The notes beneath the pieces are model-generated. The model saw only the letters and a list, made by a program, of their open reading frames with translations, was not told where the DNA came from and ran no database searches. Of a DNA stretch of 64,000 bases, positions 32,110-51,971 are shown in pieces. The DNA lies in assembly GCA_043805855.1 (NCBI GenBank), contig JAZDHP010000005.1:1132-65131 (forward strand). Direction: 5' to 3'. Positions within the stretch are counted from its first letter, which is position 1, and the number at the start of each line of letters is the position of its first letter. Made by a program: the position numbers and the translations under genes. The stretch comes from Candidatus Micrarchaeota archaeon. GTDB lineage: Archaea > Micrarchaeota > Micrarchaeia > Norongarragalinales > UBA8480.

Positions 32110-32161
32110 AACAACTTATTTAAAAACTCGTTTACAGTAAACTACTTTAGGTGAAAACTTT

Positions 32162-33123: not shown

Positions 33124-33127
33124 AATT

Positions 33128-33957: not shown

Positions 33958-34283
33958 TCCCGGGACTTGAAAAGAAAATTGCAGTTGTGAAAAGAGCTAG
34001 TTTACCGGCTCGTGTTTTTGACGAATTAGTAGTTTTACAACAAACTCAAGCAATGCCAAGCAGAACAATGCGTTATAAAAGAATATTAGAAAGAGACTGC
34101 GCTAATTTAAAAAAAGCAGTTAGAGCAAGTAAAAAACACGCAGAAATTGCACCTGCTATTGCGCGAGGTTCAACTCACTTTTACCACACGCGAAACGGTT
34201 TGGTTTTTGTTAGACTTCCTGAAAAACATTCAGGCAAGGAATTCAAGCCAATAATTGGAAGAACTCGTTTTGCAATAGACTAG
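33954..34283 (+). CDS. Small hypothetical, second member of tandem pair
   Basis: 109 aa. Overlaps the previous gene by 4 nt. Confidence 0.5.
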   Translation: MIPGLEKKIAVVKRASLPARVFDELVVLQQTQAMPSRTMRYKRILERDCANLKKAVRASKKHAEIAPAIARGSTHFYHTRNGLVFVRLPEKHSGKEFKPIIGRTRFAID

Positions 34284-34335
34284 CTCCCCGACGTTACAAC
34301 TAACATATTTATACTTAGTTTGAATTGTTATTGTC

Positions 34336-36423
34336 ATGCCAGTGAAGAAGGAAGTTAAGGGGCTTTACAGCGGAGACAAGCCAACAAAGCAGTACGCTGA
34401 AAAACCGCGCGTCGACTGGTTTGTTAAGTTCGTCAACTTTTCCAACAAATATTTCGACAGTCTTGGAAAAGGCGCGAAGTTAACTAAAGAACAGCGGGAA
34501 GTTTTTGAATTTCTAAACTATAGAATTACTGGCGAGCAGTTCCGCGCAGCTGAAATCGCCGCAATGTTTTTGGGTTTATTCGTAACTATTTTTGCAGTTC
34601 TCGTACTTGCAATTATTTTCGGAACAGGCAGCCCGCTCTTCTTGATAGGTTCGTTGCTGTGCTTTATGGCGCCATTAGCGGCGTTTATGCTAGTTGCATT
34701 TCACCCGCAGCAAGAGGCAAAACGCGAGCAAACAATGGCGCTTGGTTACCTTTCAGAAATTGTTAACTACATGGTTGCTAGTATGCGACTTACTCCCAAC
34801 TTGGAAAAGGCCGTTGAGTTCACTGCATCGCATGGCCGCGGTAAAATCGCGGAGGACATGAAAAAGTTAATTTGGGACGTGCAAATTGGAAAATATTTAT
34901 CAGTTGAAGAGGGGCTTGACGACTTAGCGTACCGCTGGGGAAAGTACAACGAGGATTTCAAGCAAGCGCTGATGTTAATTCGCTCGAGTTTACTTGAGTC
35001 CGACGACGCAAAGCGCGAAATACTCCTAGAAAAAGCATCGGCCGATGTTCTTGAAGGCAGTAAGGAAAAGATGGACCAGTTCGCTCGCGCGCTATCGCAG
35101 CCAACTGTATATTTGTATTACTTTGGCGTGTTGCTACCGCTAATGCTCGCAATTGTGCTGCCAATTGGCGGAACGCTTTCAGGCGGCGATTTTCCACTAG
35201 CTCGTCCAGAGATACTTGCTTTGATTTACATTGTTGCGCTGCCAATTGGAATTTACTTCCTTGGGATTAACATCTTGGGCAACAGGCCGCCGACGTACAT
35301 TGCGCCTGACATTAAAGAAGATTACCCCGGGCTTCCAGCAAAAGGAACAATGAGAATTCTCGGCGCCGAACTTCCAGTTTTGCCAATTGCGTTGCTCGTA
35401 CTAATAGCTGTACTTGGCGCTGGTTTTTACCTAGATCAAATAATTACAGTTGCACCGCTAGAGCTTTACGAAAAAGCTGAAGCGCTAGCTGCGATGCCAC
35501 ACATTGAACTTTTTGGGGTACCGCCATCTGAACTATTTCTAGGACTATTTTCGCTATTAGGAGTAGTTGTTGGGCTCGGTTTTGCAATTTCAATTTACTT
35601 GTACGGCACTTACATCGCTAGGAAGAAAGTGCAAGATGAAATCCGCGCAATGGAGCGGGAGTTTAAAGACGCGATTTACGTTCTGGCAAGTCGACTTGGT
35701 GAGAACCGTCCGCTTGAAGACGCGTTGAAGTATGCAGTTGCGTTTCTTCCAAACAGTAAAGTTGCAAGTAAAGTTTTTAGAAAGATTCTCGACAATGTAA
35801 CAACAATGGGAATGACAATAGACGAAGCTGTGTTTAACCCGCAGTTTGGAGCGTTGAAAAACTTACCGTCAAAAACAATTCAAAGCGGAATGCGAATTAC
35901 AATTGACTCAATTGGACTCGGGGTAAACGTTGCGGCAAAGTCGCTCATTGGCTTAGCTTTACAGTTGAGAAACAGTGAAAAAATTGACTTACTTTTGAAC
36001 AACTTACTATCAAGCGTTACTCAGATGTTAAAAACAATGGGCACTTTCATCGCGCCAATCGTGCTGGGAGTAGTGACGAGTTTACAAGGAGTAATTGTAA
36101 AGGCAATGTCTTCAAACTGCGCTGACACACCAGCAACTTCAACTTCACCTGGCGTTTCGGGTTTTGGTGGCGCGAGTAATTTAAGTTCAATGTTCTGCAG
36201 TAAAACCGGCGAAGCAAATAGTTCAACTGACCCCGCTACGTTTACATTCATAATGGGAATATACGTACTTGAAGTCGTGATTCTACTTACTTATTTCAAC
36301 TCGCAAGTTGAAGACTCAAATAACAAGTTACACACGTACATTGAAATTGCAAAGGCGCTTCCAATCGCTACACTTATATTTGCCGCAGTGGCGTATTTTG
36401 CAGGGACAAGCATAGGCGTATAA
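34336..36423 (+). CDS. Polytopic membrane platform protein, TadC/FlaJ (T2SS-F)-like
   Basis: 695 aa with at least 8 hydrophobic helices in two blocks separated by soluble helical domains. Sits directly downstream of the ATPase and upstream of the pilin genes. Assignment is by architecture and context, with no diagnostic motif. Confidence 0.6.
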   Translation: MPVKKEVKGLYSGDKPTKQYAEKPRVDWFVKFVNFSNKYFDSLGKGAKLTKEQREVFEFLNYRITGEQFRAAEIAAMFLGLFVTIFAVLVLAIIFGTGSPLFLIGSLLCFMAPLAAFMLVAFHPQQEAKREQTMALGYLSEIVNYMVASMRLTPNLEKAVEFTASHGRGKIAEDMKKLIWDVQIGKYLSVEEGLDDLAYRWGKYNEDFKQALMLIRSSLLESDDAKREILLEKASADVLEGSKEKMDQFARALSQPTVYLYYFGVLLPLMLAIVLPIGGTLSGGDFPLARPEILALIYIVALPIGIYFLGINILGNRPPTYIAPDIKEDYPGLPAKGTMRILGAELPVLPIALLVLIAVLGAGFYLDQIITVAPLELYEKAEALAAMPHIELFGVPPSELFLGLFSLLGVVVGLGFAISIYLYGTYIARKKVQDEIRAMEREFKDAIYVLASRLGENRPLEDALKYAVAFLPNSKVASKVFRKILDNVTTMGMTIDEAVFNPQFGALKNLPSKTIQSGMRITIDSIGLGVNVAAKSLIGLALQLRNSEKIDLLLNNLLSSVTQMLKTMGTFIAPIVLGVVTSLQGVIVKAMSSNCADTPATSTSPGVSGFGGASNLSSMFCSKTGEANSSTDPATFTFIMGIYVLEVVILLTYFNSQVEDSNNKLHTYIEIAKALPIATLIFAAVAYFAGTSIGV

Positions 36424-36502
36424 TACACAGCTAAAGTGACATTATACCAATCAATAGCTACTTGGAAACGCTTTTATAAAACCGCTGCTAATTGTAGTAC
36501 AG

Positions 36503-36985
36503 GTGATATTTGTGCAGTTTAGGAAAAGACGCGGTCAAGCTTTCGAGACGATGATGTTAGTTATCAGTGTAATCGTAGCGCTTGCAATTTTAGGTGTGCT
36601 TCTAGGTATTTTAAACACGTTTAGTTTTAGCGGGAGTGACGCGGAGCAAGTGTTTAAAGAAGAGTTGAAAAAAGTCGGGGGAAGTTATTCTCCAGGTTCA
36701 ACACCTAGAGATGCAACTATGAAAGCGGGAAAAATAATCAACGCTCGCGTAGTAACTGAAGACACGACAATTTTAGAAGAGTCAGTTAAATTTGTAGTAG
36801 CAAATGAATTAGAGAGCTCAATAGCCACTGTCGAGGGAGGAGTAAGAGCTACAAAAGACGTTACAGTTACTTTTTCAGTGTGTGGCGACCCAACACTTGG
36901 AAATTCAGGCACTTACGTAATTAGCATTGCTCCGGTAACGCGAGGTACAATTGCAATAGATGCTTGTTTAGCCGCTCTTGGTTAA
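36503..36985 (+). CDS. Pilin-like protein with class III (type IV prepilin-like) signal peptide
   Basis: 160 aa. MIFVQFRKRRGQ|AFETMMLVISVIVALAILGVLLGI: basic n-region, [KR]G[QA] cleavage-like site, then a hydrophobic stretch. Confidence 0.6.
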   Translation: MIFVQFRKRRGQAFETMMLVISVIVALAILGVLLGILNTFSFSGSDAEQVFKEELKKVGGSYSPGSTPRDATMKAGKIINARVVTEDTTILEESVKFVVANELESSIATVEGGVRATKDVTVTFSVCGDPTLGNSGTYVISIAPVTRGTIAIDACLAALG

Positions 36986-37010
36986 ACCTGAAAGTTAAAG
37001 GAATTGAAAT

Positions 37011-37229
37011 ATGAAACTTTTTTCTTTTTTTAAAAACCGAAAGGGCGCTAGTGACTGGTCTTCAATCTACTTGCTGATTGTTGTTATCATTGGCGTCATT
37101 TTGTTGGTTACTCTTATAAAACCAACTTTGAAAGCAGCCGGTCAATCTGCAGTTGCAGGCGGTCAAGAAGCAAAGACAATCGCGGGCATTGGAACTTACT
37201 TCTTGTCAAAGGCACGGCGTCCAAAATAA
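37011..37229 (+). CDS. Minor pilin-like small protein (class III signal peptide)
   Basis: 72 aa. MKLFSFFKNRKGA|SDWSSIYLLIVVIIGVILLV. Confidence 0.5.
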   Translation: MKLFSFFKNRKGASDWSSIYLLIVVIIGVILLVTLIKPTLKAAGQSAVAGGQEAKTIAGIGTYFLSKARRPK

Positions 37230-37366
37230 GGCAAACCACATGAACAAACTGCTATTAGTTGGAATGGCGCTCTGACTACGTGTGGTCAAAAGCGCAGAAA
37301 GCTGTTGTTGAACAGTTTTGACAAAACACTGGAAAAAGCGGTGAGAATAAAAGCAATAAATAGCTA

Positions 37367-38056
37367 ATGGTAACCATGTATAGACGTGGCCAAGCTAGTG
37401 GACCAATTGAACTTGTCGTTGCAGTTATTATTCTAGTTGCGAGCATGAGCTTGGCGTTTATCGTTATGCAAAGCACTAGCGACGCCCAGTGTATTGACAA
37501 GCTGAAGAGTCAAATGCGTGACTTGAACAGCGTAATGATTGACGTTTCTCTAGGTTCTCCTTCTACGTCGCGCGAAGCTAATGTTGAACTCGCTAGTTGC
37601 GGCGGGCAGAGCATTGAAGGAGTTAGAATTGTTTATTTTGAAAACGCACTTTATTGTGGCGCTTGCGGTGCAACTGAAAAAGGTTGCTGGATGATACAGC
37701 CGATAACTTACGATAAAACTGCAAACATATATGGAATTTCTCTACACGCTTCGACTTGCATAAACATGCCGGGCGGCATTGTACTAGAGCAAGATTTAAA
37801 TTGCGACGACGATATTTTAACACCTGGCGAAGTTAGTGCTACAGCTTGTCCATCAAACATTGGAGCGCGAAGTACAAACGATCAAAACTGCGGGTTACCT
37901 CCAGATATAGCAACTTCAAGCACAACTAAATTATTAACAATGTCAAAAGAACCTGGCGAAACCCAGTACAAAGTTAGAATTACAAAAGGGTTTTCAACCG
38001 CAGCTAATGAACCAATGCTTAACGTGTGCTTTTTAAAAAAGGGGCGTAGTTCATGA
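37367..38056 (+). CDS. Pilin-like protein (class III signal peptide), Cys-rich globular domain
   Basis: 229 aa. MVTMYRRGQA|SGPIELVVAVIILVASMSLAFIV. Confidence 0.6.
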   Translation: MVTMYRRGQASGPIELVVAVIILVASMSLAFIVMQSTSDAQCIDKLKSQMRDLNSVMIDVSLGSPSTSREANVELASCGGQSIEGVRIVYFENALYCGACGATEKGCWMIQPITYDKTANIYGISLHASTCINMPGGIVLEQDLNCDDDILTPGEVSATACPSNIGARSTNDQNCGLPPDIATSSTTKLLTMSKEPGETQYKVRITKGFSTAANEPMLNVCFLKKGRSS

Positions 38057-38673
38057 AATCCGCACAAATTGAACTATTTATGCTGACGAAAATGGCAATG
38101 CTATTTTTTATCATTTCACTAGCGTTCATCGCGTTGAACATAAGTAACATGGAAAAAGAAGCTCTATGCGGAGAGCAGGCGCTGTCAACTGCAAAGATAA
38201 TTTCCTCTAACATTAACCAAGCTCTCAACGCGGCAGTTGAAGATAGTAGAACTGTTTACAAATTCGAACCTACAATTTCAACTAGCCGTGAACGATATTC
38301 TCGCTATGTGATTTGGCTAGCTGAACGGGAAACACCAGGAAATGACCGAGTTCAGTTAAGCGTAGTTGTAAAGCCAGAAAGTGAACCCAACTGCATGCGC
38401 AGGGTAAGCGTAGTTTATGACAAAAATAAAATTAAAACAAATTTCGCACAAGATACTAACCCAAAATCACTAGATCCCACTATTAGCCCTGGCGAACAAG
38501 TGTTTGTAATTGAACCAACCAACCGCGAAACTCCATCTAAATTTTTAGTTATTGTAAAATGCAGGGATAAACTTCTACCTCAACAAAGTTACCTCTTTTT
38601 TGACGATTGTAAAAGCAGCAACCCAAGTTCATGCAGCACACTTGAGCCACCAGCATATGATGCGTGTAAATGA
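38053..38673 (+). CDS. Pilin-like protein (class III-like signal)
   Basis: 206 aa. MKSAQ|IELFMLTKMAMLFFIISLAFIAL. Overlaps neighbours by 4 nt. Confidence 0.5.
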   Translation: MKSAQIELFMLTKMAMLFFIISLAFIALNISNMEKEALCGEQALSTAKIISSNINQALNAAVEDSRTVYKFEPTISTSRERYSRYVIWLAERETPGNDRVQLSVVVKPESEPNCMRRVSVVYDKNKIKTNFAQDTNPKSLDPTISPGEQVFVIEPTNRETPSKFLVIVKCRDKLLPQQSYLFFDDCKSSNPSSCSTLEPPAYDACK

Positions 38674-39245
38674 AAATGATGAAAAAACGTGGTTTTATTG
38701 GCCCGCTTGGCGATGACATTCCAAGCATCTTTCCAATAGTTGCCGGCATGTTACTTTTCATCAGCACTATACTTTACGTAAACGCACAAGTTGACACTAG
38801 AAATTTAGACTTGCGTCAAAAAGAAGCAACTCAAAAACTCGCTTACCTCGCAACGCAAAAAGCTTCTTTTCAAATCGGAGAGTTCGACAGCTTGTGCGAA
38901 AATGCACTGCAGCCATTTGCCGAGAATAACGGTTTGAAATTCGCAATTGTAATAAAACGGTTCTGCAACCAAGGCTGTCTAACGTGCACTAAAGGCATAG
39001 ATTTACAAAATTCAAACGCTTTTAACGAGGATGAAATGATAACCAACTCCAATGACTTCAATAAAAATTACGTTTGTACAAATGAAAAGCCAGAAGTTGC
39101 TCTAGAATACGCCGCAGCGAGAGCTAGTAAAGCCGCTGCTCCGAAGAACACAATTACTTTAATTTATCCATTTACCGTACCGTGTCCAGATTATGATTCG
39201 TCTAACAATGGCTTGGCAACGTTGAATGTATTAGTGTGGAAATAA
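38670..39245 (+). CDS. Pilin-like protein (class III signal peptide)
   Basis: 191 aa. MKMMKKRGF|IGPLGDDIPSIFPIVAGMLLFISTILYV. Confidence 0.55.
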   Translation: MKMMKKRGFIGPLGDDIPSIFPIVAGMLLFISTILYVNAQVDTRNLDLRQKEATQKLAYLATQKASFQIGEFDSLCENALQPFAENNGLKFAIVIKRFCNQGCLTCTKGIDLQNSNAFNEDEMITNSNDFNKNYVCTNEKPEVALEYAAARASKAAAPKNTITLIYPFTVPCPDYDSSNNGLATLNVLVWK

Positions 39246-39266
39246 AGTAGAAGAGAAAAATAAAAA

Positions 39267-39989
39267 ATGAAAAAAGCACAGGCAGCAGTGTTTGACGGCA
39301 TCATGTTTCTACTTTTAGTTAGCTTTTCAGTTACGCTTATGTTTTCTTTTCTCTCAGATTATGGCAACGCCCAGGCTAAAACTTTGCAAAGTAGTCACAC
39401 TTTAAACTACGTACAAGGAATTGGTAAAGCGCTTTACACTTTGGATGTTTCAATGTTACAGAGCACGGACTTGGACACGCTGGGCAACTCATGGAACTAC
39501 GAAAATTGCGATACACTTGAAAAGTTTAAATCCAACGCAGTTTCTGATTTAATCAAGCGAGATATAAGCGATGGTTTTTTTAACAATAAGTTTGGCGATA
39601 GCGATGACATAAGCAACGCGCCTGGCAAACTTGCACTGCGCTGTGCTTTGTTTGAGTTAATGAAACCAGTTACAGGTAGTGGTTACGACTATTTAGCAGA
39701 GGTGCTAGATGGAGATAGAAGTCCAAGATTTGCGCCGTTTCCAATAATAAATTCTCCTCAAAATCGCGTTGATTTGGAGCCAGTGTTGGTGACAAATTTA
39801 CCTACGAGCGATTCAATTTACTTCGCTGCTGAAGAAAGCGGGTGCGATAGCGTTTCCCGTACGCTAAAAGGAAAGCAACTAATGGCTGTAGCGACGCCGT
39901 TTCGTGTTTTCGACAAAGACGGAGGGGCGCATGACCACCAGCTACGTATATGCATGTGGCCAAGCGAAAGAATCAACAACAACCCCTAA
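39267..39989 (+). CDS. Pilin-like protein (class III signal peptide)
   Basis: 240 aa. MKKAQA|AVFDGIMFLLLVSFSVTLMF. Confidence 0.55.
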   Translation: MKKAQAAVFDGIMFLLLVSFSVTLMFSFLSDYGNAQAKTLQSSHTLNYVQGIGKALYTLDVSMLQSTDLDTLGNSWNYENCDTLEKFKSNAVSDLIKRDISDGFFNNKFGDSDDISNAPGKLALRCALFELMKPVTGSGYDYLAEVLDGDRSPRFAPFPIINSPQNRVDLEPVLVTNLPTSDSIYFAAEESGCDSVSRTLKGKQLMAVATPFRVFDKDGGAHDHQLRICMWPSERINNNP

Positions 39990-40025
39990 TAGGTTTTTTA
40001 ATCAAAAAACACAAATGTAATCGTT

Positions 40026-41099
40026 ATGGCTAAAGAAGAATTGGAAAAGGCAAGGAAAGCACTAGAAAAAATGCCTAGACACGGCTGGCTGCCTGTACCT
40101 TTGAAAATAGCGCTTTGCAAAAGTCACCTGGATGGCGAAATAACTTCAGCTGAATTAAATTCACTCGGGGAACACTTTGTCACTATTGAAGACCCAAAAG
40201 ACGCGCAAGACATGTTGAAAAGCGCAACTGAACAATTACAAACCACTAACGCCAGAGTTGTGTTTTTAAATTTACATAGAGAAGCTGAAAAACTTGCCCT
40301 TCAAGTTAAAGCAATTAAAAACGCACCAGCTAATGATAGACTTTTCGTTGAAACAGTTGACCGCGATTCAAGACAAAAGTTAGAAATTCTCCCGCTAGAT
40401 TTACTTAATGAACTTAAAGCTGGGTTTGCTGAAAAAAAGCTAGATAAACTCGAGCTTGAAAACGCACGCTACGCGACTAACTTTTTCATTACCTTAGCAA
40501 GGGTAATTCCAAGCCCCTCAACCGCCGCGAAAATCCCCCCCACTTGGAGAAACGCAGTAACCGCAATTGCAAATAAAACAATGGAAATTCCCGAAGTTGA
40601 AGGTAAAGCTAGATACTTACACCGCGCGTTAACTTACATTGCCTATTGCGAAAAAGATTTACCTTTTTGGCACCGGCCTTTGACTCCTCAAGATGCAGTA
40701 CATATTGAAAACTTTGCAAAAGCACAAACCGCGCGGCTTGGAACACGGCACATTTCACCAACTACTTTAAGTGAATTACTTTACGTAAAAGGAATTAAAC
40801 CAAGGGACAAATATGGCCGCACAATTAAACTAAATGGTAGAATGACTTTGAAACATGCAGATATATTTAAACGAGAAATTGAACGTAGGCTTGACCCAAT
40901 TCACTTTAAAGTGCGAGTTGCACAAACTACATTAGAACCAAAGGCAAAAAGAAACATAGAAGTAACCGCACTTAGCTCAGAAGGCGACGATTTCTTAAGT
41001 GAAATAAAAACCCCAATATATCGAAGAAGGGTGGCTTTAACATTTAAAAAAATTACTAGACCTTTGTGGCCAAGGGCAAAAAGAGCAGAATTTAATTAA
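40026..41099 (+). CDS. Paralog family B member 1 (RHGWL module at N-terminus)
   Basis: 357 aa. KMPRHGWLPVPLKIAL...LNSLGEHFVTIEDPKDAQ, and C-terminal LDPIHF. Confidence 0.65.
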   Translation: MAKEELEKARKALEKMPRHGWLPVPLKIALCKSHLDGEITSAELNSLGEHFVTIEDPKDAQDMLKSATEQLQTTNARVVFLNLHREAEKLALQVKAIKNAPANDRLFVETVDRDSRQKLEILPLDLLNELKAGFAEKKLDKLELENARYATNFFITLARVIPSPSTAAKIPPTWRNAVTAIANKTMEIPEVEGKARYLHRALTYIAYCEKDLPFWHRPLTPQDAVHIENFAKAQTARLGTRHISPTTLSELLYVKGIKPRDKYGRTIKLNGRMTLKHADIFKREIERRLDPIHFKVRVAQTTLEPKAKRNIEVTALSSEGDDFLSEIKTPIYRRRVALTFKKITRPLWPRAKRAEFN

Positions 41100-41130
41100 T
41101 AAAAAGCAACAAATAAACTGGTGAAAAACA

Positions 41131-42468
41131 ATGGCAGAAAAAGCAACACCCCTTGAAGAATATTTCGGGTCGATGTCGCGTCATGGTTGGCTTCCTGGCC
41201 CGTTGAAAAAGGCTATTTTCCGCGATTTAGCTGGCAGGCCAGGAACGGCAAAAACGCTACGCGAAATTGGCAACCACTTTGTAACAATAAGCGACGTACA
41301 ACGCGCTCAACCAACAATCACACGAGCAACCCAAATGCTAGCAACACACGGCGCACAAAAAGCGCTACAACACCTGCTAACCGAAACAAAAAAACTAGCG
41401 GCAACTATTCCTTCCCCATTGCCAACTGCAGCTTCAACTGTCAACGCAACAGCAACACGTGCTGCAGCAGCTAAAATTCCACGGCCAAGCGAAAGTCCAA
41501 CTGAACCAACAACAGCTAGAATTCCTAGACCTGGAAATAACCCGCCAGAGTCAAAATCTCTTGTTGGCGGGGTTTCAGTTGTGGAGCTTGAAAAAATAAA
41601 ACCAGTTAGACGTGAAATTCCAATTACAACAGTAGCATATCAAGTTGTACCGTTTGGACAAGAACCTTGGTTCTTGCATGAAACTGAAGCACCAAAGCCA
41701 AAGCTATTACACCAAGCACAACCTTATGCACATGCACTATACCTGCGAGACACGCGCCCAGAAGCACAAGCAACTTTAGAACAATATTTACCAGCACCGC
41801 TATTAGATGAAATTAAAACAGCATATGCCCGCGGTTTGCTTGATAGAAAACTACACGAACCAGGCGATGAATACCACGAAAACGTTTTTCACGAAATAGC
41901 TGACTACTTAGATTATGGCAGTCATAACTCAAACACTTCAAACCATAAACCGCAATGGACTGCCTTATTGCACGCCGTTCTACAGCGAGTTGATAGACAA
42001 AGAAGCACGCGGCACAAAGTAGATTATCTACTTAGCGCATTGAACCGCACGGCTGCAACTGCCAACTTAGAAAACCCATTTGAACTTGGCCTTATAGAAG
42101 CTTTAACAAAAGCGCATGAAAAAGAACTAGGCGTTAGAGGCAAACACATTTCGTCATACGATTTACGCTACTTACTCTACGACGAAGGGTATGCCGTAGC
42201 ACCCCGCAGTGAAGCAGCTAGCATTTCAATCAAACATCCACTAAACACAAAAACTAACCGAATAACAGCGGCGCAATTACAAACTCATCTAGACCCAGTA
42301 CATTTTAGCATACAACGAAATGGGAGAAATGAAGTTTCAATACACGCCAACACAATGGAAGGCGTCGCGTTTATAGATCGAATGGAACTACTGAGAGGAA
42401 AAAGCTTAAGTTTAAGACGCCGCGTAGCTCGCTTGGGCAAAATGGCAAGTCTAAAATTCGGCAAGTAA
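41131..42468 (+). CDS. Paralog family B member 2
   Basis: 445 aa. MSRHGWLPGPLKKAIFRDL...TLREIGNHFVTISDVQRAQP...THGAQKALQHLL, then a Pro-rich linker. The first ~250 nt are near-identical to 49767..50951. Confidence 0.7.
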   Translation: MAEKATPLEEYFGSMSRHGWLPGPLKKAIFRDLAGRPGTAKTLREIGNHFVTISDVQRAQPTITRATQMLATHGAQKALQHLLTETKKLAATIPSPLPTAASTVNATATRAAAAKIPRPSESPTEPTTARIPRPGNNPPESKSLVGGVSVVELEKIKPVRREIPITTVAYQVVPFGQEPWFLHETEAPKPKLLHQAQPYAHALYLRDTRPEAQATLEQYLPAPLLDEIKTAYARGLLDRKLHEPGDEYHENVFHEIADYLDYGSHNSNTSNHKPQWTALLHAVLQRVDRQRSTRHKVDYLLSALNRTAATANLENPFELGLIEALTKAHEKELGVRGKHISSYDLRYLLYDEGYAVAPRSEAASISIKHPLNTKTNRITAAQLQTHLDPVHFSIQRNGRNEVSIHANTMEGVAFIDRMELLRGKSLSLRRRVARLGKMASLKFGK

Positions 42469-42481
42469 AAAACTTAGCTAG

Positions 42482-44509
42482 CTACCCGGCTTTTTTCTTT
42501 ACGTTTACATCTTCGCTGCACTTGGGGCAAGTGTAGACAAAGCTATTTTCAAGTGGTTTAATTGACGGAGAGCAGTTCGCGCACATTCCCGTACCACAAT
42601 ACGGGCAGAAAATTATCCTGCCAGTTTTAGAATGACAAGTTGGACAGCCGGTTGTCTTATCCGCTTGCATTTGTACAAAAGAAACGTCAGACCTTTGCGA
42701 TTCAGGCGCTGCCCGTACAGGAGATTCAGTTGCCTGGGATAACCTTGCAAAAATATCGTTGCCGCCGCTTGAACTTTCAGAGGAAGAAACTGAAGCAGAT
42801 GACATAGCAGCTGAAGTATTTGCAAACAAATCATTACCACCAGTACTGGACGCTGATTCTTGCTTTGGCGCTGGAGAAGAAGCGAATAAATCATTTCCAA
42901 GAATATCTGACACTGACAACCCAACTTCTGGTTTTGTTTGCTGTGCAGCAGCGGCGCTTGCTACCGACGCAGCTGTCCTTACATGCGCGACAGATGCGAC
43001 TGCAGTTGCAACTGGAACTTTCGGCGCGTTCACATTTACAACGTCGCTTGGCTTAACTGCCGGCGTTTTTATTTGCGAGTAAACATCTTGCACCATCAAC
43101 CCGAATTCTTCAGTTTGTGCAACATCTTTATTTGCAATTACATTCACTTCATCACTTAGCAAATAGCGACGGTGAACCGGCCCACTAGTAGTTTGCGCTT
43201 TTATTTGATCTTCTTTTGTAACTGAACTGACTAACTCTTGAATTTCACTTTCTTCTTTTTTCTTAGTTTCAAGCGCCTTACGCTGCGCTTCAAGTTTCTT
43301 GCGCTCAGCTTCCTTTATACCGCGCCACGTCGCAAAACTCGGCGGCTCGTTTGGGTTAACTTTAGCGGGAACCGCTACTACTTTCTTAGTAGGAACAACC
43401 ACGCCCACTTTAGCCGGAACAACCGCCACTTTAACAGGAGTCTGTTTTTTGTTTCCGCCGAATAAAAATCCAAAAAATCCACCGCCACTACTACCTTGCT
43501 TTTTAGGAACTGCTGCAACCGGCACCGGTTTAACTTCAAGTGATTTTTTATCAATAGACGGTTTTAACTGCGAAGCTATTGCAGCTTTACCAACAGCGGG
43601 TTTTGTAACTACTTCACTAGAAACTACAGGATTAACTTCTAGAACCGAAGGTGGGAAAAGCGTTGACGGAGAAGCAATCGCAACTGGCGGCTGTGAAGTA
43701 ATTTGAAATTTTACCTCAACTGGCTTTTCAATTGTTTGTCTTTTCAAGTGTTCAAGCTGCGCTTCGTCTTTTACTTCTCTTGGCTTTTCAATTACAATAG
43801 GCGCAATTTCGACAGGCGCAACGTTGGGCTTTTCAACTTTTGCACTTTTCGCTTCAACTTTTTTAGTTTCAGGCTTTTTAGCATCTACTTTTCTAGTTTC
43901 TATTTTTTTCACTTCAACTTTTTTCGTTTCTGCTTTTTTTATTTCAACAACCCGTTGTTGAACTTTTTCAACATAAGTTTGCGTTTCGCCAATCGAAGTC
44001 ATTAGCCTTTCTTTTCTCGCTTCATTTTTCTTAACTTCTTTATCTTCAACTTTTTTAATTTCTGCAAGTGCAACTTTACTTGCTTTTAACGTGACTTTTT
44101 GCGCTTTTCCAGAGGCACTAGAGGCAGCTACATGTACAGCCGTTGGAATTGGAGCAATTGGAATTCCAACTGTTACAAATTTACGCGAAGTTGCGCCAAA
44201 TAGGAAAAACACACGCATTACTAAGAAATAGAATAGCATAACAATGAACAATAGCGGCATTGCAAATGAATCTAGTTTAAACGCGCGTTGTCCAGATATG
44301 CCAAAGTCAAGCAGAAACGCAGTAAACGCAATTGCAAGCGAAACCACTATAACCGTGACTAATTTTTTCTTACTGTCAAAAGTTCTTATCTCAGGATATA
44401 CAAAACGCAGGACAAGATAACCTATTGAAAAAGCGCCTGCTAGATAAAATAAAATAAACACAGCGGCAATTGCTTCTTCTAACATAGATAAAAAAACACA
44501 GAGGCGCAA
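42482..44509 (-). CDS. Membrane protein with K/E/V/P-rich repetitive linker, three GGND(L/I)FA repeats and a C-terminal double zinc ribbon
   Basis: 675 aa. Four N-terminal TM helices. C-terminus CPTCHSKTGRIIFCPYCGTGMCANC...YTCPKCSEDV. Confidence 0.6.
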   Translation of the reverse strand: MRLCVFLSMLEEAIAAVFILFYLAGAFSIGYLVLRFVYPEIRTFDSKKKLVTVIVVSLAIAFTAFLLDFGISGQRAFKLDSFAMPLLFIVMLFYFLVMRVFFLFGATSRKFVTVGIPIAPIPTAVHVAASSASGKAQKVTLKASKVALAEIKKVEDKEVKKNEARKERLMTSIGETQTYVEKVQQRVVEIKKAETKKVEVKKIETRKVDAKKPETKKVEAKSAKVEKPNVAPVEIAPIVIEKPREVKDEAQLEHLKRQTIEKPVEVKFQITSQPPVAIASPSTLFPPSVLEVNPVVSSEVVTKPAVGKAAIASQLKPSIDKKSLEVKPVPVAAVPKKQGSSGGGFFGFLFGGNKKQTPVKVAVVPAKVGVVVPTKKVVAVPAKVNPNEPPSFATWRGIKEAERKKLEAQRKALETKKKEESEIQELVSSVTKEDQIKAQTTSGPVHRRYLLSDEVNVIANKDVAQTEEFGLMVQDVYSQIKTPAVKPSDVVNVNAPKVPVATAVASVAHVRTAASVASAAAAQQTKPEVGLSVSDILGNDLFASSPAPKQESASSTGGNDLFANTSAAMSSASVSSSESSSGGNDIFARLSQATESPVRAAPESQRSDVSFVQMQADKTTGCPTCHSKTGRIIFCPYCGTGMCANCSPSIKPLENSFVYTCPKCSEDVNVKKKAG

Positions 44510-44587
44510 TAAAAACTTGCACTTTTACATGGCAAAGGAGTTTAAAGCCGAAAATCGTAACAAGAATAGCAAAAAAAGTGGTTTTGT

Positions 44588-44839
44588 ATGATTGACTTCA
44601 GTGCATTGCTTTCCCAAAGTTGGTTCATTTTACTATTATCTCTACTATTAACGCTCATTACCTTGCCATTTGTGCTAGTATTTTCATTTGTTTATGACTA
44701 TCTAATAAAGCACCATTCTAAAACGCCGAAAATCCTAGTTATGTTAATTTGTACGTTTCTAGCAGTTCTAATCGCGGTTATAATAATTGAAATTTATCTA
44801 GGGTACACCCTACCCCAGCTATTTACCGCTACGAGCTAA
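44588..44839 (+). CDS. Small two-TM membrane protein
   Basis: 83 aa, entirely hydrophobic. May be a leader/ORF-like small protein. Low confidence. Confidence 0.3.
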   Translation: MIDFSALLSQSWFILLLSLLLTLITLPFVLVFSFVYDYLIKHHSKTPKILVMLICTFLAVLIAVIIIEIYLGYTLPQLFTATS

Positions 44840-44893
44840 CTGCCCAAGAGGTATTTAAAGTAAAAACTCCTTTGTATTTACTGAAACACTCCC

Positions 44894-47800
44894 ATGAATT
44901 TAAAAGGCAATTTAAGCGCATTTTTCATAATTATATTTACTCTTGAAATCTTCTCTCCATTAGCGTTCGCTTATACTCCGCTTCCACTTGGTTCGCCAGC
45001 AACAACAATACCAACTACAATTGGCTCGCGTTACAACGTTCCTGGCCAGTGTGAAGTTAATGAAATGACTCCCGAACAAGTGCAACTATTCTGGATACAA
45101 ACGCAGAACTTCCGCGGCGACCAAATTAACTCAAAAACAGACGAGGCGTTAATGACTACAAAACCATCTGGAACTACGATTAATTTAAACGTCAATAATT
45201 TTCCAGCTGACTCTGGCGAAAAAGTCCATCCATTTGTAGATATTGCACGGTTATTAGGCCTAGATGAAAAAAAGAGAAAAGAAGCAGCGCAGTTTCTTGG
45301 AAAAAGAGAAACAGATCGGATAAGCAACAAAGAAGCGCATCAACTTGCAAAGAAATATGAAAAAAACGAAGGTGAGTTCGGCACTTTGTTAGATGCTTTC
45401 CGCGGAACTGCAAGTGAAGAGAGTCCTGCTTATGAAAGCTATAAGTTGAAAACTAATGGCGGCGGCGAAATTCCTTCAACTGCATTGCAAGGCAAGACGC
45501 CAATTGACGAGTGTATAATTAACAACGCGCACGTGCAAGGCAAAGCTTCTTACGTTGTGTCAACTTCCAAAGACGTTGCAATTGCAGCTGACAGTTCCCA
45601 AACTCAAAGCGAAAAAGTAAACTTTTTACATTCAACTAACACGCTTGGCAGTTTAGACTTGCAAGGCGCAAGCACGTTGATAATACCAAAGCACTATAAG
45701 GAACTTGTAACTAGATTAAAAAAATGGCTAGCAGCTGACTTATTAGCTTCAATTGGGCAAACTACTGTTTTCTTTGGTGAAAAAAATGCACTTAGCAAAA
45801 GCCAAGAGAAGCTAAAGGAAATTGTAGAACGCAAAAGAGACTTTGGTTTAGACCAAATCGCTTTTAGCCGCATTCAAGACAGCCCACTGAAACTGGAAGT
45901 TTATGGACTCGGGAGTAGGCTAAGCGTTACAAAAAGCGAGCTACAACAGTCTGTTGAAAAAATGCAACTTAATTTCATACGAATGCATGCGGGAAACGTA
46001 GAAATCACAGACGACGTCATTGCGCGGTTAAACACAGACCCGCAGTTTGCAACGCGTTATAATTCATTGCAAAAAATTCAAAATGAACTTGAAAGTGCTA
46101 CGTCACTTAAACCAACTGACCCTGCAGATGATATTTATCAAAAGTATAAAAATGACCTTCACGGAGTAGCAGGAATAAATGACGCCGATCAAATTGAAAT
46201 TCAAAATGCGCAAGAACGATTAAGGACAAATCAAGATTATGTTAAAACACTTAATGATTTAAATGGAAAAACTTACAAAGCTGATCTAGAAAAGGTTAAA
46301 AGAAAACTGGCAGGTAGAACTGGGGAGTCTTGGTTTCGTTTAGCAATGGGAATGGCGTGGCTTGGACCTGGCCGCTTTGTGTTTGAATTAGCTGATGGCG
46401 TTGACTTTGTTCCAATTTCAAACAAGGCATTTGCAGAAAACTACGTTACAATAATGGCAGATAATACCGACTTAGCGGGAGAATTCAGGCGAGCAACAAA
46501 CTGGGTGTTATCTGGAACAGTTACTGACATGCTTTCAGATGCAACTGGCGAAGGCATTCCAACTGCAGCGTACCGCGTTGGGAATTTAATTATAGTTAAC
46601 AACCCAGTTGAAGATCAGACGGTAACCGGCACTTCAGTTACTAGCTTACAAAACAACGGCGGCAAATGGAACATAGGCACAGAATGGAAAGGAAAGTCAG
46701 ATGCATTAGTTGCAGAACAGCTAACAACTGAAAATGAATACGCTCGCTTGCCAATGGAAGTAAAAGGACAAGCTTGGAATTTGAAAATAAGGGCAAGGCA
46801 AGAATTTTCTACTTTTTATGACACAATGATATACCTAGCGCCGCTACTAAGTTGGCGAATACTAGGCGCAACAGATTATGCTGTAACAATTTTTAGAGTA
46901 GCAGTTTATGACTTTTACGTTACAGATTTTGTTAACCCTGCCGCGTTTAAGAAAGACGAAGTTTGCTCAGATGAAGAAATTGACAAATATGTAAATTGGT
47001 ATATGGGAGCAACTTTGGTAAACCAAGGCTTAGGTTGGGCGCCAATCTTAACCCCCTGGTTTAAAGGACTCAGTACAGTTACAAAAGTAAGCGCTGCTCT
47101 AAACAGCAAGACGAAGATTTTTACAGGGCCATTTATTGATAAATACGTAAAGTCAATAGGAAAGGTGCTTGACCCAGTTACCTTAGCACAGATGTACATT
47201 GCAGGTGAAGCATTGGACTACGCTTCAAATTGCAAGGACGACCAGTATACTATTTTAGCATACCAGCAGTTAAAGAAAAAGAGCGCAGCTACAATTTCAG
47301 ACAGATTACAGTCAATTGGAGGTAGTGATTTCTTAAGCAAGTTAAACGTCGGACAAGCAGTAAAGGGAGTTGGCCAGCAAGTTGACACAGCTACAATGTC
47401 TGAATACGTTAACTTCCGAGCTGTTTTGGAAAACCAAGTTTCTTCAATAACTGCAGATGAAATTTACTTCCTGCACTTTAAAGGCGATTCAATAGAATGG
47501 ATTAACAACATAAAAACAAACACGGCACAACCAGAAATGTGCCAACGCGAGTGCCTTGACAGTAAAACTAAAGTTTGCTGTAGAGATGCAACTGGAACCG
47601 AATGCACAGATAAAGCAACCGGCGTAAAAACACAAATAGCCGGCAAAGAAAGAAGTTTAATGGCAAAAAGATTTACCAACTTAGCGTTGGTTTTAACTCC
47701 AAACAAGTACATTTCAACTTCGCTTGGCGGCTGCCCCGGAAATATTTTACAAATTGACAGTAGTAAAAACATTCAATTAACAAGCGGTACAACTTGCACC

Positions 47801-48958
47801 GGCGGAACGTGCATCTTGAATCAATTACAGTATTTAACCGGCAGGCAAGTGAACAGTGACTTGACAAGCGTGCTTGGAAAAGTTACTGGAATTTACACTA
47901 CTAGCGGTTCAGTTCAAATTTCAGATGGAGCAATTAGGTTCAACCCGAGCGAAGCAATTAATGACCAAATGGAAATAAGAAGCCCAGGCGCAGGCGTAAT
48001 ACAAACCGCAAGTTCAAGCGAAGAGTTGGCTTACAAACAAGCAGCGATGCTTGCAATTGACAACAACGGCGGCGTTACACTCAGCGGTTACATTACTTCT
48101 AAATCACCTGAACAAGTGCCAGCCGGCGAACTTATAACAATAATGACCGAACGCGGTCGCATAAACTATATGGGCGGCGGGAGAGTACAAATATTCTTAC
48201 ACACACTAGCACAGGGAGACGCTGGTTTGATAAATGGATTTACAACAATGCCAGTTCAATACAACCAATGCCCCGGCTACAACGCACCTGGAATAAAAAT
48301 ATCTAATTTACAGGGATACGCTGGCCCCGGCGACCAAGTTGCCGCACAGTTAAACGCAGCTTTACAACAAATTCAAGGCTGTAACGGAATGCAAGTGCTT
48401 GAAACAAAAGATAAGAAAATAATGTTCGGAACAAACGCAAACGGAGAACCAGTTTTGAGAATTATTGACAAAAACACAGGAGAAGTTACCGAAGCGCGTA
48501 TAAATGGTCCAATTCGCCGAGAGGGTAACGAAATTATAGTTCCAACTGACAAGGGAGAATTTAGGTTCAATATAGGAATGGGCGAAAACGGCCAGCCAAT
48601 GCTTTCACTAACAGGACCAAACGGGTTACAAGAAAATGGCCCATTGTTAAGAGCAAATGGACTTGGCGGCATGTTAGTTTTTGACCCGGCAACAGGACAA
48701 TGGCATGTGTTAAACGGCCAAGATTTGGCAATGAACGACAACTTTGCAAAGTACGGCACATCATACGGCCGCGATACAAAAGGAAACTTCGTCGGCTCAC
48801 CTGGAGCAGACTTCCTGTCACCTTCATCTAAAAGAGTTTCAACAAGCGGCAACTCACTCGCTTCGCTACCTTCATGGCCAGAGGAATCGCCAATTTTGCT
48901 AGTAGTTATTGTACTTACGTTGTTAGCCGTTGCGTTTGTACGCTGGAGAAAAGTTTAA
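44894..48958 (+). CDS. Large secreted protein (1354 aa) with N-terminal signal peptide and C-terminal motif-TM-basic tail (sortase-type sorting-signal architecture)
   Basis: N-terminus MNLKGNLSAFFIIIFTLEIFSPLAFAYTP. C-terminus ...SLASLPSWPEESPILLVVIVLTLLAVAFVRWRKV-stop. Confidence 0.75.
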   Translation: MNLKGNLSAFFIIIFTLEIFSPLAFAYTPLPLGSPATTIPTTIGSRYNVPGQCEVNEMTPEQVQLFWIQTQNFRGDQINSKTDEALMTTKPSGTTINLNVNNFPADSGEKVHPFVDIARLLGLDEKKRKEAAQFLGKRETDRISNKEAHQLAKKYEKNEGEFGTLLDAFRGTASEESPAYESYKLKTNGGGEIPSTALQGKTPIDECIINNAHVQGKASYVVSTSKDVAIAADSSQTQSEKVNFLHSTNTLGSLDLQGASTLIIPKHYKELVTRLKKWLAADLLASIGQTTVFFGEKNALSKSQEKLKEIVERKRDFGLDQIAFSRIQDSPLKLEVYGLGSRLSVTKSELQQSVEKMQLNFIRMHAGNVEITDDVIARLNTDPQFATRYNSLQKIQNELESATSLKPTDPADDIYQKYKNDLHGVAGINDADQIEIQNAQERLRTNQDYVKTLNDLNGKTYKADLEKVKRKLAGRTGESWFRLAMGMAWLGPGRFVFELADGVDFVPISNKAFAENYVTIMADNTDLAGEFRRATNWVLSGTVTDMLSDATGEGIPTAAYRVGNLIIVNNPVEDQTVTGTSVTSLQNNGGKWNIGTEWKGKSDALVAEQLTTENEYARLPMEVKGQAWNLKIRARQEFSTFYDTMIYLAPLLSWRILGATDYAVTIFRVAVYDFYVTDFVNPAAFKKDEVCSDEEIDKYVNWYMGATLVNQGLGWAPILTPWFKGLSTVTKVSAALNSKTKIFTGPFIDKYVKSIGKVLDPVTLAQMYIAGEALDYASNCKDDQYTILAYQQLKKKSAATISDRLQSIGGSDFLSKLNVGQAVKGVGQQVDTATMSEYVNFRAVLENQVSSITADEIYFLHFKGDSIEWINNIKTNTAQPEMCQRECLDSKTKVCCRDATGTECTDKATGVKTQIAGKERSLMAKRFTNLALVLTPNKYISTSLGGCPGNILQIDSSKNIQLTSGTTCTGGTCILNQLQYLTGRQVNSDLTSVLGKVTGIYTTSGSVQISDGAIRFNPSEAINDQMEIRSPGAGVIQTASSSEELAYKQAAMLAIDNNGGVTLSGYITSKSPEQVPAGELITIMTERGRINYMGGGRVQIFLHTLAQGDAGLINGFTTMPVQYNQCPGYNAPGIKISNLQGYAGPGDQVAAQLNAALQQIQGCNGMQVLETKDKKIMFGTNANGEPVLRIIDKNTGEVTEARINGPIRREGNEIIVPTDKGEFRFNIGMGENGQPMLSLTGPNGLQENGPLLRANGLGGMLVFDPATGQWHVLNGQDLAMNDNFAKYGTSYGRDTKGNFVGSPGADFLSPSSKRVSTSGNSLASLPSWPEESPILLVVIVLTLLAVAFVRWRKV

Positions 48959-49011
48959 AACCTCCTTGCAAGTAATATTTACGAAATTAGCAATCACCCA
49001 CCGTGAATTAA

Positions 49012-49719
49012 ATGGAAGAAGAAACCCAATTGCAAATCACCCAAGAGAATCTAAACTTAGAAACGCTAGTCCTGGAACCAACTTGGCGCGAAATTTTACT
49101 CGAATTAGTTCGCACTAACCAAATGAACCCATGGGACCTTGACCTTGTTCTAATCGCTGACAGTTATTTACAAAAAGTACGCGAAATAGCTTCAATTGAC
49201 TTACGCCTACCGGCAAATGTTATACTTGCAACTTCCCTACTCCTACGTTTCAAGGCAGACGCGCTTTCACTAGAGGAAACAGTGCAAGATGAATTGTTCG
49301 TCGAGGAAACTACACCGCGGGAATTAATCCAAGAAGAGATACCGCAACTAATCTTACGCACGAACAACGCACGTAGCCGCAAAGTAACTCTCTCTGAATT
49401 GCTAAGCGCAGTTGAAGAAGTAATCAACAGTACAAACACAACGCAACTAATGTTGCCTGTCCCAAAGATACTTGAACTTGAATTGCCAAAAGAAGACTTA
49501 CACGAGTTAATTAAAAAAATATACGCGCTGGCAAACGAGTTGAAAGACGAAAATGGAACAACTTTATTTTCTTCACTGCTTGACCCAATTCTATTACAAC
49601 GAAACAAAGGCCACCACGTTGCAAGCCGGCTAATTCCCCTCCTCCATTTAGTGCAAGAGAGAAAGGCAGACGTGTGGCAAGAACAAATGTTCGGCGAAAT
49701 TAAGATTAAAGTACTGTAG
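49012..49719 (+). CDS. scpA: Segregation and condensation protein A (kleisin ScpA)-like
   Basis: 235 aa. The N-terminus EPTWREILLELVRTNQMNPWDLDLVLIADSYLQKVREIASIDLRLPANVILATSLLLRFKADAL matches the ScpA N-domain pattern (PLDLLL.LI....LDI..I.I..I.DQYL.Y........L..A..YLVMAA.L..IKS..L). Confidence 0.65.
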   Translation: MEEETQLQITQENLNLETLVLEPTWREILLELVRTNQMNPWDLDLVLIADSYLQKVREIASIDLRLPANVILATSLLLRFKADALSLEETVQDELFVEETTPRELIQEEIPQLILRTNNARSRKVTLSELLSAVEEVINSTNTTQLMLPVPKILELELPKEDLHELIKKIYALANELKDENGTTLFSSLLDPILLQRNKGHHVASRLIPLLHLVQERKADVWQEQMFGEIKIKVL

Positions 49720-49766
49720 AAAAAGCCACAAAGCATTTTTATAAACTGCTCCTCTTATTTTAAAGT

Positions 49767-50951
49767 ATGGCAACTGTTGAAACTCCTGAAAGTAGATTTT
49801 TTGCGCCGATGTCTAGGCATGGTTGGCTTCCTGGCGCGTTTAAAACCGCGATTCATCGCGATCTTGGCAAAAAGCCGGAAACGGCACAAACGCTACGCGA
49901 AATTGGCAACCACTTTGTAACAATAAGCAACGTACAACTCGCCAAACCAGCAATTGAACAAGCAACCCAAACGCTCAAAACACACGGCGCACAAAAAGCA
50001 CTACAACACTTATTGAGAGAAGCTAAGCGTATTGCAACTGAATCACAACCTGTTGCTCCGAAAAGAGTTCTGCGTCCTCCAAAACCCCCGGCTTCTTCAA
50101 GCGCAACTGGAGAAAGATTATCACAAGACCCTGCGGTACCAATAGCCGAAAGCGACATAGTTGAAGCTACTTCTATTCCAATTCCACGCGGTCCACCTAG
50201 ACCTGGAGAAAAACCGCCCGCGCCTGACCGCGCTTTAAAAGTACCGCAACGCGCTTTTGACGAACGCTTACTTTCGTTCAGAATTTCTGCAATTGACCAC
50301 CAAACTCTTCAAGGCGCATTGCCAAAGCAGTTACTTGAAGAAATTATAAAAGAGGATATAACAGGTTTTAGATTAAAGAACATCGCAGACAATGTACGCA
50401 GGGCAACAACCGCCACTCCTTTAATTGAACGTAGCTTTAGAACCACACTAGGCGCAGTTGTTTTGCGAACAGAAACTTTAAAGACACCTGCAGAAAAGCT
50501 TACGCACTTAAAACAACAAATTGAAACTCTAGCAACTTGGGCACAGCACTATGCAGATAACAGAAAAATTCACCCGTACGCACTTGATGCGCTCACACAA
50601 GCACATGGAAAGAGACTCGGCTCAAAAACACACGTTACGCCAGAAACACTTGCAAGTGACTTACAAGCAGATGGACTGAAATACAACTGCGTTTCAGAAC
50701 CAGGCACTGAAAGTATCTTAATCTCACCAAACTCAATCAAAGCCAGACGGAACAAAACTTCTCTAATCGCTGCAGTTGTAGGCGAATTTGACCCAACGCA
50801 CTTTAATGCAACTCCGTATATGCTTAATTCAGACAAACTAATAGTTCTCCCAAGAACAGAACAAGCTAGAAAATTCTTAAGAGCAATTCCAAGACAGCCA
50901 ACCTGGAGAGAAAAACTAGCAAAAATCTTTACACGCAAAAAGAAAAAGTGA
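49767..50951 (+). CDS. Paralog family B member 3
   Basis: 394 aa. MSRHGWLPGAFKTAIHRDL...TLREIGNHFVTISNVQLAKP...THGAQKALQHLL, Pro-rich linker, C-terminal FDPTHF. Confidence 0.7.
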   Translation: MATVETPESRFFAPMSRHGWLPGAFKTAIHRDLGKKPETAQTLREIGNHFVTISNVQLAKPAIEQATQTLKTHGAQKALQHLLREAKRIATESQPVAPKRVLRPPKPPASSSATGERLSQDPAVPIAESDIVEATSIPIPRGPPRPGEKPPAPDRALKVPQRAFDERLLSFRISAIDHQTLQGALPKQLLEEIIKEDITGFRLKNIADNVRRATTATPLIERSFRTTLGAVVLRTETLKTPAEKLTHLKQQIETLATWAQHYADNRKIHPYALDALTQAHGKRLGSKTHVTPETLASDLQADGLKYNCVSEPGTESILISPNSIKARRNKTSLIAAVVGEFDPTHFNATPYMLNSDKLIVLPRTEQARKFLRAIPRQPTWREKLAKIFTRKKKK

Positions 50952-50969
50952 ATTTACAAACGATTTAAT

Positions 50970-51509: not shown

Positions 51510-51524
51510 GGTGACTAAGCTTGT

Positions 51525-51806: not shown

Positions 51807-51971
51807 GTTTTCAGAAAAAATTAGCTAAACAGCTATCTATACCTGGATGAGCAAGCAAAAGCTCACACTGACTAATTTTTAAAAATAATTCGAAAAAAGT
51901 TTTTAAGGCACAAAACCTAGTGCCTACGTTTAACCACTATATTTAAATATAAGTAGGCACCATGTTTAGCT

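Follow-up and report, generated by a model that had tools for sequence, protein, structure and literature searches.

Gene conversion of domain-sized segments is, as a process, textbook knowledge. In the PE/PPE proteins of mycobacteria and the LXG toxins of Firmicutes a conserved N-terminal helical domain precedes a variable C-terminus, and a type VII secretion locus is linked to both groups. In Sulfolobus, UpsX and AapX are lineage-specific cytoplasmic accessory proteins encoded at filament loci. Archaeal type-IV-filament loci usually carry lineage-specific accessory genes (bioRxiv 10.64898/2026.04.22.720090). Here we analyze three paralogous genes, A, B and C, of which A and B lie at the end of such a locus, in a 64,000-nt stretch of DNA from Candidatus Micrarchaeota archaeon (assembly GCA_043805855.1, contig JAZDHP010000005.1, positions 1,132 to 65,131 of the forward strand), referred to below as the window. 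We propose, with a probability of roughly 0.72, that segmental gene conversion between B and C produced a chimeric gene B within a homologous two-domain family.

As full-length paralogs, A, B and C belong to a family that is specific to Micrarchaeota and predicted to be cytoplasmic, in which a basic N-terminal module (N-module) of ~85 aa and an optional Pro-rich disordered linker precede a ~240-aa helical and alpha/beta body with an invariant 'LDPxHF' motif. According to the list of open reading frames (ORFs) and the spans of our hidden Markov models (HMMs), gene A (40026..41099, + strand, 357 aa, NCBI tag V1722_00380) carries an N-module at aa ~11-95 joined directly to a body at aa ~101-343, and is an old tandem paralog of gene B. 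Gene B (41131..42468, + strand, 445 aa, V1722_00385; body HMM span aa 198-439) consists of a C-like N-module and a Pro/Ala/Thr-rich linker (aa 1-~146) followed by a pre-body and body (aa ~150-445) that resemble P0005, a protein of a related genome whose gene holds the corresponding syntenic position. Gene C (49767..50951, + strand, 394 aa, V1722_00410), located upstream of a NUDIX-Fic gene pair, joins a B-like N-module (aa 10-94) through a Pro-rich linker to a strongly diverged body (aa 163-391).

The original prediction held that B and C, 8.6 kb apart, share near-identical 5' ends with long identical runs and then diverge completely. The distance is right, as the two ORF starts are separated by 8636 nt with both genes on the + strand, and so are the runs: the 41-mer quoted at the time is present exactly twice in the window, where no such pair is expected by chance, and the second quoted string lies inside a 21-nt run that is identical in B and C. 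Near-identity, however, overstates the case, the tract being just 77-82% identical at the nucleotide level and the first 13 codons 49%. A repeat finder aligns the homogenised 5' tract of B (41160..41390, + strand) with that of C (49796..50026, + strand) at 79% identity, and blastn reports 81.6% over 217 nt (E = 1e-55); within the tract, runs of 41, 21 and 18 nt are identical. The 41-nt run (41252..41292 in B, 49888..49928 in C, + strand in both) codes for (K/Q)TLREIGNHFVTIS, the helix that is best conserved in the N-module. As to the length of the shared segment, put at ~250 nt, a tract of this kind was found, but the C-like stretch of B may reach codon ~146, that is, up to ~420 nt. A second patch of similarity in the linker (41524..41546, + strand, PRPGNNPP), 87% identical to 50196-50218, may mark this 3' reach of the exchanged tract; by itself it is not significant (blastn, E = 0.25).

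The similarity of the tract exceeds what the encoded amino acids require. Among the identical degenerate residues in the first 95 codons, B and C use the same codon at 41 of 57, whereas 22.0 +/- 3.5 are expected from the codon usage of the window; the control pairs are at expectation (B-A, 10 vs 11.1; C-A, 10 vs 9.1). Over codons 14-90 of B and C the synonymous divergence (dS) is 0.51 and the nonsynonymous divergence (dN) 0.20 by the Nei-Gojobori method, while dS is at least 1.0 in all other blocks: synonymous sites are unsaturated in the tract and saturated beyond it. The proportion of synonymous differences (pS) is 0.37 in the module vs 0.55-0.70 in the body. An excess of this kind could also arise from constraint on the nucleic acid itself, exerted within the first 250 nt by a 5' mRNA structure, a small RNA, a binding site or an overlapping gene, and the 41-nt run is indeed longer than the density of mismatches predicts (permutation p = 2.5e-4 with 55 mismatches over 241 nt; p = 0.03 when synonymous sites alone are counted). 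Yet the regions upstream of B and C are unrelated, as are their first 13 codons, gene A is without the similarity, the alternative-frame and antisense ORFs are not common to both copies, and positions 39900-51100 give no Rfam match at E <= 1, so that an RNA element was rejected. Moreover, constraint would leave the incongruent trees and the chimeric protein described below unexplained, and a second pair of paralogs (P0007 and P0008, see below) shows the same excess with a different module sequence. We regard nucleic-acid constraint as highly improbable.

Beyond the module the genes do not diverge completely, as had been claimed, nor is the body a variable one. Sensitive alignment shows that the bodies of A, B and C are a single homologous domain, the ~240-aa 'LDPxHF' domain, at 18-25% identity, a result that the original prediction had itself named as one that would speak against this part of it. 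Between A and B the alignment runs over 252 aa at 26% identity (E = 2e-11), between the bodies of B and C over 76 aa at 29% (E = 1e-3), and a body HMM takes in all three at full length together with nine outside relatives (~240 residues). The motifs in common are LExYLPxxLLxElK, WxxAxxAIxxRA, AQxxxLGkxHiTPexL and the invariant LDPxHF; the last, noticed earlier as DP(V/T)HF, is genuine and the most conserved motif of the family.

The closest relative of B depends on which part of the protein is compared. P0005 matches B across aa 40-441 (blastp, E = 2e-42), a match that takes in the pre-body stretch ELEKIKPVRRE / ELERIKPLRKRE. In 30-residue windows, residues 1-90 of B are 57-73% identical to C and 0-30% to P0005, whereas from residue 151 onwards B is 17-43% identical to P0005 (mostly 33-43%) and near background to C; overall, B and C share 67% amino-acid identity over aa 1-90 and afterwards fall to near background. 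In a sliding window the best match of B switches from C to P0005 near codon 150, with the shift at ~41550-41580, and the crossover is bracketed by codons ~93-150, a Pro/Ala/Thr-rich linker that is disordered in the AlphaFold2 (AF2) prediction. Neighbour-joining trees with 200 bootstraps are incongruent in the same manner: in the N-module tree B and C group together with 100% bootstrap and P0005, 14% identical to B, lies in the other major clade, while in the body tree B groups with P0005 (94%) and C stays outside. Judged from these comparisons of sequence, B is a chimera: its N-module is of the C type, and its body is orthologous to the gene that holds this position in related genomes. The proposed exchange of the 5' module, through recombination or gene conversion, is supported by the discontinuous synonymous divergence, the incongruent trees, the switch from C to P0005 and the recurrence in a second genome.

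Could the same pattern arise without recombination, by duplication of a whole gene in the window lineage, with the N-module kept by purifying selection and the C body diverging extremely fast? The C body forms a long branch, and outside the window it is P0005, a B-type ortholog, that matches it best (E = 1e-7); by our estimate a neutral body at dN ~0.5 would already give ~30% amino-acid identity, and the whole family is fast, its positional orthologs being 14-38% identical where neighbour genes are 50-87% identical. For this scenario to hold, dN would nevertheless have to exceed dS by far across a folded domain of 240 aa in which all family motifs are retained. At 18% identity, the bodies of B and C are no more alike than unrelated sequences in a forced alignment, their pS exceeds that of the module as given above, and the B body groups with P0005 to the exclusion of C. 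In addition, the position upstream of NUDIX-Fic is already filled by a family member in assembly GCA_053535655.1, and because that genome has a family member at the same position, the C locus is older than the B-C module similarity. Whole-gene duplication is in our view quite unlikely.

Segmental conversion is further supported by assembly GCA_053535655.1, in which P0007 (contig L004) holds the position of A and B and P0008 that of C. The N-modules of these two proteins are 55% identical at the amino-acid level (49-55% across analyses) and 70% at the nucleotide level, and they are sisters with 98-100% bootstrap. The same codon is used at 40 of 56 conserved residues of the module, compared with 22.4 +/- 3.5 expected, and outside the module there is a weak excess (39 vs 30.1 +/- 4.0). 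Since homogenisation recurs in P0007 and P0008, we propose recurrent segmental gene conversion, the module evolving in concert within each genome. N-modules at the same position in different genomes are only 14-32% identical, compared with 67% for B and C within one genome, and in the N-module tree one clade (89%) unites all five modules of contig L001 with both modules of L004, and another (100%) holds A, B and C.

The exchange was originally called recent, which a dS of ~0.5 contradicts. It nonetheless postdates the separation from the closest genomes available, because the same-codon fraction is 0.72 in the B-C module vs 0.49-0.54 in orthologous neighbours compared between genomes (T2SSE, T2SSF, ScpA and LeuRS). 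In the mechanism that we envisage, the 5' module would have passed non-reciprocally between two anciently diverged loci, by segmental gene conversion or recombination and in either direction, in a tract beginning near codon 10 and stopping between codons ~93 and 150. This exchange would have followed the split from related genomes without being recent, and an independent homogenisation would have occurred between the same two positions in the second genome, with the bodies diverging while the N-module evolves in concert. The discontinuity in synonymous divergence, the incongruent trees, the recurrence in two lineages and the greater similarity of paralogs within a genome than of positional orthologs are all as in known cases of segmental conversion and concerted evolution. 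Unlike those cases, the tract corresponds to a whole structural domain of an uncharacterised archaeal family, donor and acceptor lie 8.6 kb apart at fixed syntenic positions, and the event is moderately old, with no ongoing high-frequency process.

Several points weigh against this account. The trees rest on very divergent sequences (15-35% identity), and the long branch of the C body, with P0005 as its best outside match, counts here as well. At such divergence dS is unreliable in the bodies, and the breakpoint falls in a low-complexity linker where it is bracketed no tighter than stated. As peptide patterns and the 26-nt core of the identical run retrieved no closer genome to that of the window from genome and metagenome contigs, the exchange is neither polarised nor dated on the tree, and a single genome of the window lineage supports it.

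Family genes occupy conserved syntenic positions in four related genomes, and the family has at least three such positions around the type-IV-filament locus (29836..39989, + strand). On the + strand throughout, this locus opens with a T2SSE ATPase (29836-32109, 757 aa) and four small ORFs (32162-33957); a platform protein of T2SSF-like type (34336-36423) comes next, and then five pilin-like ORFs (36503-39989) whose N-termini resemble class III signals, with A and B at the end of the locus after gaps of 36 and 31 nt, respectively. The contig of P0005 (L001) is collinear with the window from 32.7 to 49.7 kb, with identities of 80% for T2SSF, 46-67% for the pilin-like proteins, 51% for a 1354-aa protein and 76% for ScpA; P0005 sits at the A+B position, though it is just 30% identical to B. 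P0004 (contig L005) also holds this position, as does P0007. The second position is that of C and P0008, both of which precede NUDIX and Fic genes (in the window 50970-51509 and 51972-52892, + strand), and the third lies between LeuRS and the T2SSE ATPase, where P0009 corresponds to a module-only ORF of the window (29232-29639).

In these respects A and B resemble the accessory proteins of archaeal filament loci: they stand co-oriented at the edge of an ATPase-platform-pilin cluster with short gaps, their position is kept in related genomes, and the products are soluble and of uncharacterised function. They differ in that they have no homology to described accessory families, occur in several copies, some of them outside the locus, and evolve far faster than core genes.

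The filament locus itself looks complete and is collinear with contigs of three related Micrarchaeota genomes. Its T2SSE ATPase is intein-free, while orthologs in related genomes (L008 11700-14504 and the contig of P0004) carry an intein, in one copy of 934 aa with Pfam Intein_splicing and in one of 1258 aa with Intein_splicing and LAGLIDADG; the tblastn alignment of the window protein breaks at residues 485-490. Of the further N-module genes in related genomes, three stand in tandem right after T2SSF on L001, one adjoins P0006 and one ScpA. The order of a family member (C or P0008), NUDIX and Fic is kept as a three-gene unit in two genomes (window 50970-52892; L007 8276-9800).

An exhaustive HMM search of 1.84 billion representative proteins returned only ~20 true relatives, the named sources of which are metagenome-assembled genomes (MAGs) of Candidatus Micrarchaeota. 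Profile searches with A, B and C together, with the N-module and with C alone gave proteins of the same MAG only, and a look-up by protein found no contigs on record encoding B or C. One further family member, P0020 (V1722_04750), lies on another contig of this MAG; the search for additional copies in the source genome covered the 64-kb window. Neither Pfam, NCBIfam, PADLOC nor PHROGs gives a meaningful match to A, B, C or their orthologs, the best PDB sequence profiles are designed TPR or helical proteins at E = 0.004 or weaker (7obi_A, a designed consensus TPR), and Foldseek against PDB and BFVD finds nothing below E = 0.2. The TPR proteins P0016 and P0018 from the exhaustive search were rejected as repeat-driven false positives, and two motifs that Pfam did not confirm, one kinase-like (P0019) and one JAB-like (P0020), were not used as evidence. 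This unannotated, Micrarchaeota-restricted family contributes two new domains for which these databases gave no counterpart.

The N-module is not confined to A, B and C. Iterated local HMMs define it by the consensus xFxxxGMxRhGWLPxxLxVAlHxAxxxGxxxxxxLxxLGxHF over ~85 aa and find it seven times in six genes of the window, with E-values of 1e-8 to 6e-11 before the sequences joined the profile. Besides A, B and C these are a module-only small protein just upstream of the T2SSE ATPase (29232..29639, + strand, 135 aa, V1722_00310; E = 6e-11 before inclusion), a protein with an N-module and an FHA domain (7109..8125, - strand; hhalign E = 5e-4; Pfam FHA 23.4 bits against a cut-off of 20.7), and a protein with two tandem N-modules (5482..6378, - strand; domain E-values of 1.4e-8 and 3.6e-9 before inclusion). 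Outside the window it is joined to a transmembrane (TM) helix and a Beta-lactamase2 domain (P0023, 78 bits), to an HprK_C-like P-loop (P0021, E = 6e-6) and to an unrelated TM-containing C-terminus (P0006). More N-module genes with unrelated, unannotated C-termini are found at L001 3621-6370, L003 2193-3416 and L004 7301-8107 (- strand). The two minus-strand genes of the window form an N-module cluster at 5482-8125, in which an unassigned 232-aa ORF (6382-7080) separates the double-module gene from the FHA gene.

The AF2 model of A, built from a 12-sequence alignment, reaches a confidence (pLDDT) of 83 and a pTM of 0.69. It predicts an N-terminal bundle of four to five helices (2-12, 24-35, 41-54, 57-70 and 76-98; pLDDT ~95), followed by a helical middle and a C-terminal beta-beta-alpha-beta-beta-alpha unit; beyond the N-module the model of B, derived from only three sequences, is of low quality (pLDDT 53). 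Neither a signal peptide nor a TM segment is present in A, B or C, their maximum 19-residue Kyte-Doolittle hydropathy (KD19) being below 0.9. A single TM helix comes after the module in P0006 and P0023, and on reading the sequences Lys and Arg are denser just before this helix, which suggests that the module is cytoplasmic rather than surface-exposed. The modules are consistently basic: 27 of 28 have a net positive charge, with a median charge of +6.5 and a median isoelectric point of 10.1, compared with a background median of +1 in the window. Their profile weakly matches TPR repeats (P0016, P0018; 7obi_A, E = 0.004).

We tentatively propose, at somewhat less than even odds, that the N-module is a cytoplasmic docking or adaptor domain, because of its promiscuity, its likely cytoplasmic site, its helical-bundle fold, the weak TPR-like resemblance and the association with the filament locus. 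In such a role it would tether the LDPxHF body, the FHA domain, the HprK-like P-loop and the TM-anchored beta-lactamase-like domain to a common co-evolving partner, plausibly within the type-IV-filament machinery encoded alongside. Homogenisation, which would keep all modules in a genome fitted to that partner, may then be tolerated or favoured on account of the shared partner. The module is promiscuous, evolves in concert within genomes and lies around the one evident filament locus that these host-dependent archaea have for their cell surface; as the family genes also evolve several-fold faster than their neighbours, they are reasonable candidates for lineage-specific regulation or assembly of the attachment apparatus. 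Against docking it must be said that the function is inferred and the structural matches are uninformative; that the consistently basic charge equally fits nucleic-acid binding; and that the genomes which tie the family to the filament locus are syntenic and so not independent of one another, with C and P0006 lying outside such a locus.

The main functional rival to docking follows from this charge. The N-module may bind nucleic acid and the family may be one-component-type regulators in which sensor or output domains vary, some of them anchored in the membrane as ToxR is, with the same history of conversion. Proteins in which a module is followed by a TM helix and an extracytoplasmic part, or by an FHA domain, resemble regulators of the ToxR and EmbR types in architecture, and the genes flank operons. 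Pfam, however, shows no helix-turn-helix or winged helix-turn-helix match, the helix bearing the LGxHF motif is continuous in the AF2 prediction with no helix-turn-helix, and the weak similarity to TPR profiles points to protein binding instead, so that a regulator seems to us rather unlikely.

The original prediction went further and read the family as polymorphic effectors, toxins or antigen-variation proteins, in which a constant N-terminal delivery module is set on variable C-terminal cargo for the host interactions of an episymbiont. Micrarchaeota are host-associated DPANN archaea (PMC5498576), the N-module is joined to unrelated C-terminal domains across the family and exchanged between loci, the family evolves much faster than its neighbours, and its genes adjoin the locus of the filament or secretion ATPase and the gene of a likely surface protein of 1354 aa. 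Even so, every testable defining feature fails. A, B and C lack a signal peptide or TM segment and their bodies are homologous, not alternative cargos; the fixed syntenic positions, the placement of Lys and Arg in P0006 and P0023, which suggests a cytoplasmic module, and the fused FHA and HprK-like domains, which are of an intracellular signalling type, all speak for another role. Pfam, NCBIfam, PADLOC and PHROGs return no toxin, defence or phage family, and no gene is placed like an immunity gene, B being followed by a convergent 675-aa gene and C by the conserved NUDIX gene. A search of all six frames of the 64 kb by tblastn and HMM found full-length genes only, with no promoterless cassettes or fragments. 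The likeness to polymorphic toxins and to cassette systems (pilE/pilS, vls, targets of diversity-generating retroelements), namely a constant N-terminus, a dissimilar remainder and recombination at the boundary, is thus superficial: secretion and toxin domains and a downstream immunity-like gene are lacking, and the bodies are mutually homologous. We hold this reading to be very unlikely. An antigenic-variation cassette system was rejected, as no silent partial cassettes occur within the 64 kb and the products are without signal peptide or TM segment. The target of a diversity-generating retroelement was rejected as well, since the 55 mismatches of the B-C tract (28 transitions, 27 transversions) have no adenine bias, with 16 showing A in B and 18 showing A in C, a judgement made on these mismatches and not on a systematic scan for a reverse transcriptase.

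A related idea draws on analogy with the PE/PPE proteins and ESX, or LXG proteins and the type VII secretion system: the basic four-helix N-module might be an undescribed cytoplasmic targeting or docking domain of Micrarchaeota that recruits changing cargo or regulator domains to the filament machine. If so, some of its bearers might reach the host cell, and conversion would match the modules to a fast co-evolving receptor. The analogy extends to a short N-terminal helical module before diverse C-terminal domains, several paralogs per genome, genes near a secretion or filament ATPase locus, and a module homogenised between paralogs. There is, by contrast, no match in sequence or fold, the family has no secretion signal or evidence of export, the nearby machinery is an archaeal type-IV filament and not a type VII secretion system, the C-termini are signalling-like and not toxins, and no immunity-like gene follows B or C. 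A targeting domain of this sort appears unlikely.

The genes between B and C have features of their own. The 675-aa membrane protein encoded convergently to B (42482-44509, - strand) has a Cys-rich, zinc-ribbon-like C-terminus and a lysine-rich (KKxEx) array with a 15-nt period, the repeats lying at 43831-43954, and its orthologs in L001, L002 and L005 are just 42-72% identical. The 1354-aa protein (44894-48958, + strand), for which Pfam gives no match, carries a signal-like segment at its N-terminus and a TM anchor at its C-terminus; it adjoins ScpA in L001 and L004 at 49-51% identity and is likely a major surface protein. Further upstream in the window, a giant ORF of 2426 aa (14660-21940, - strand) has a counterpart of 2323 aa in L008, with faint matches to bMG3 and CarboxypepD_reg.

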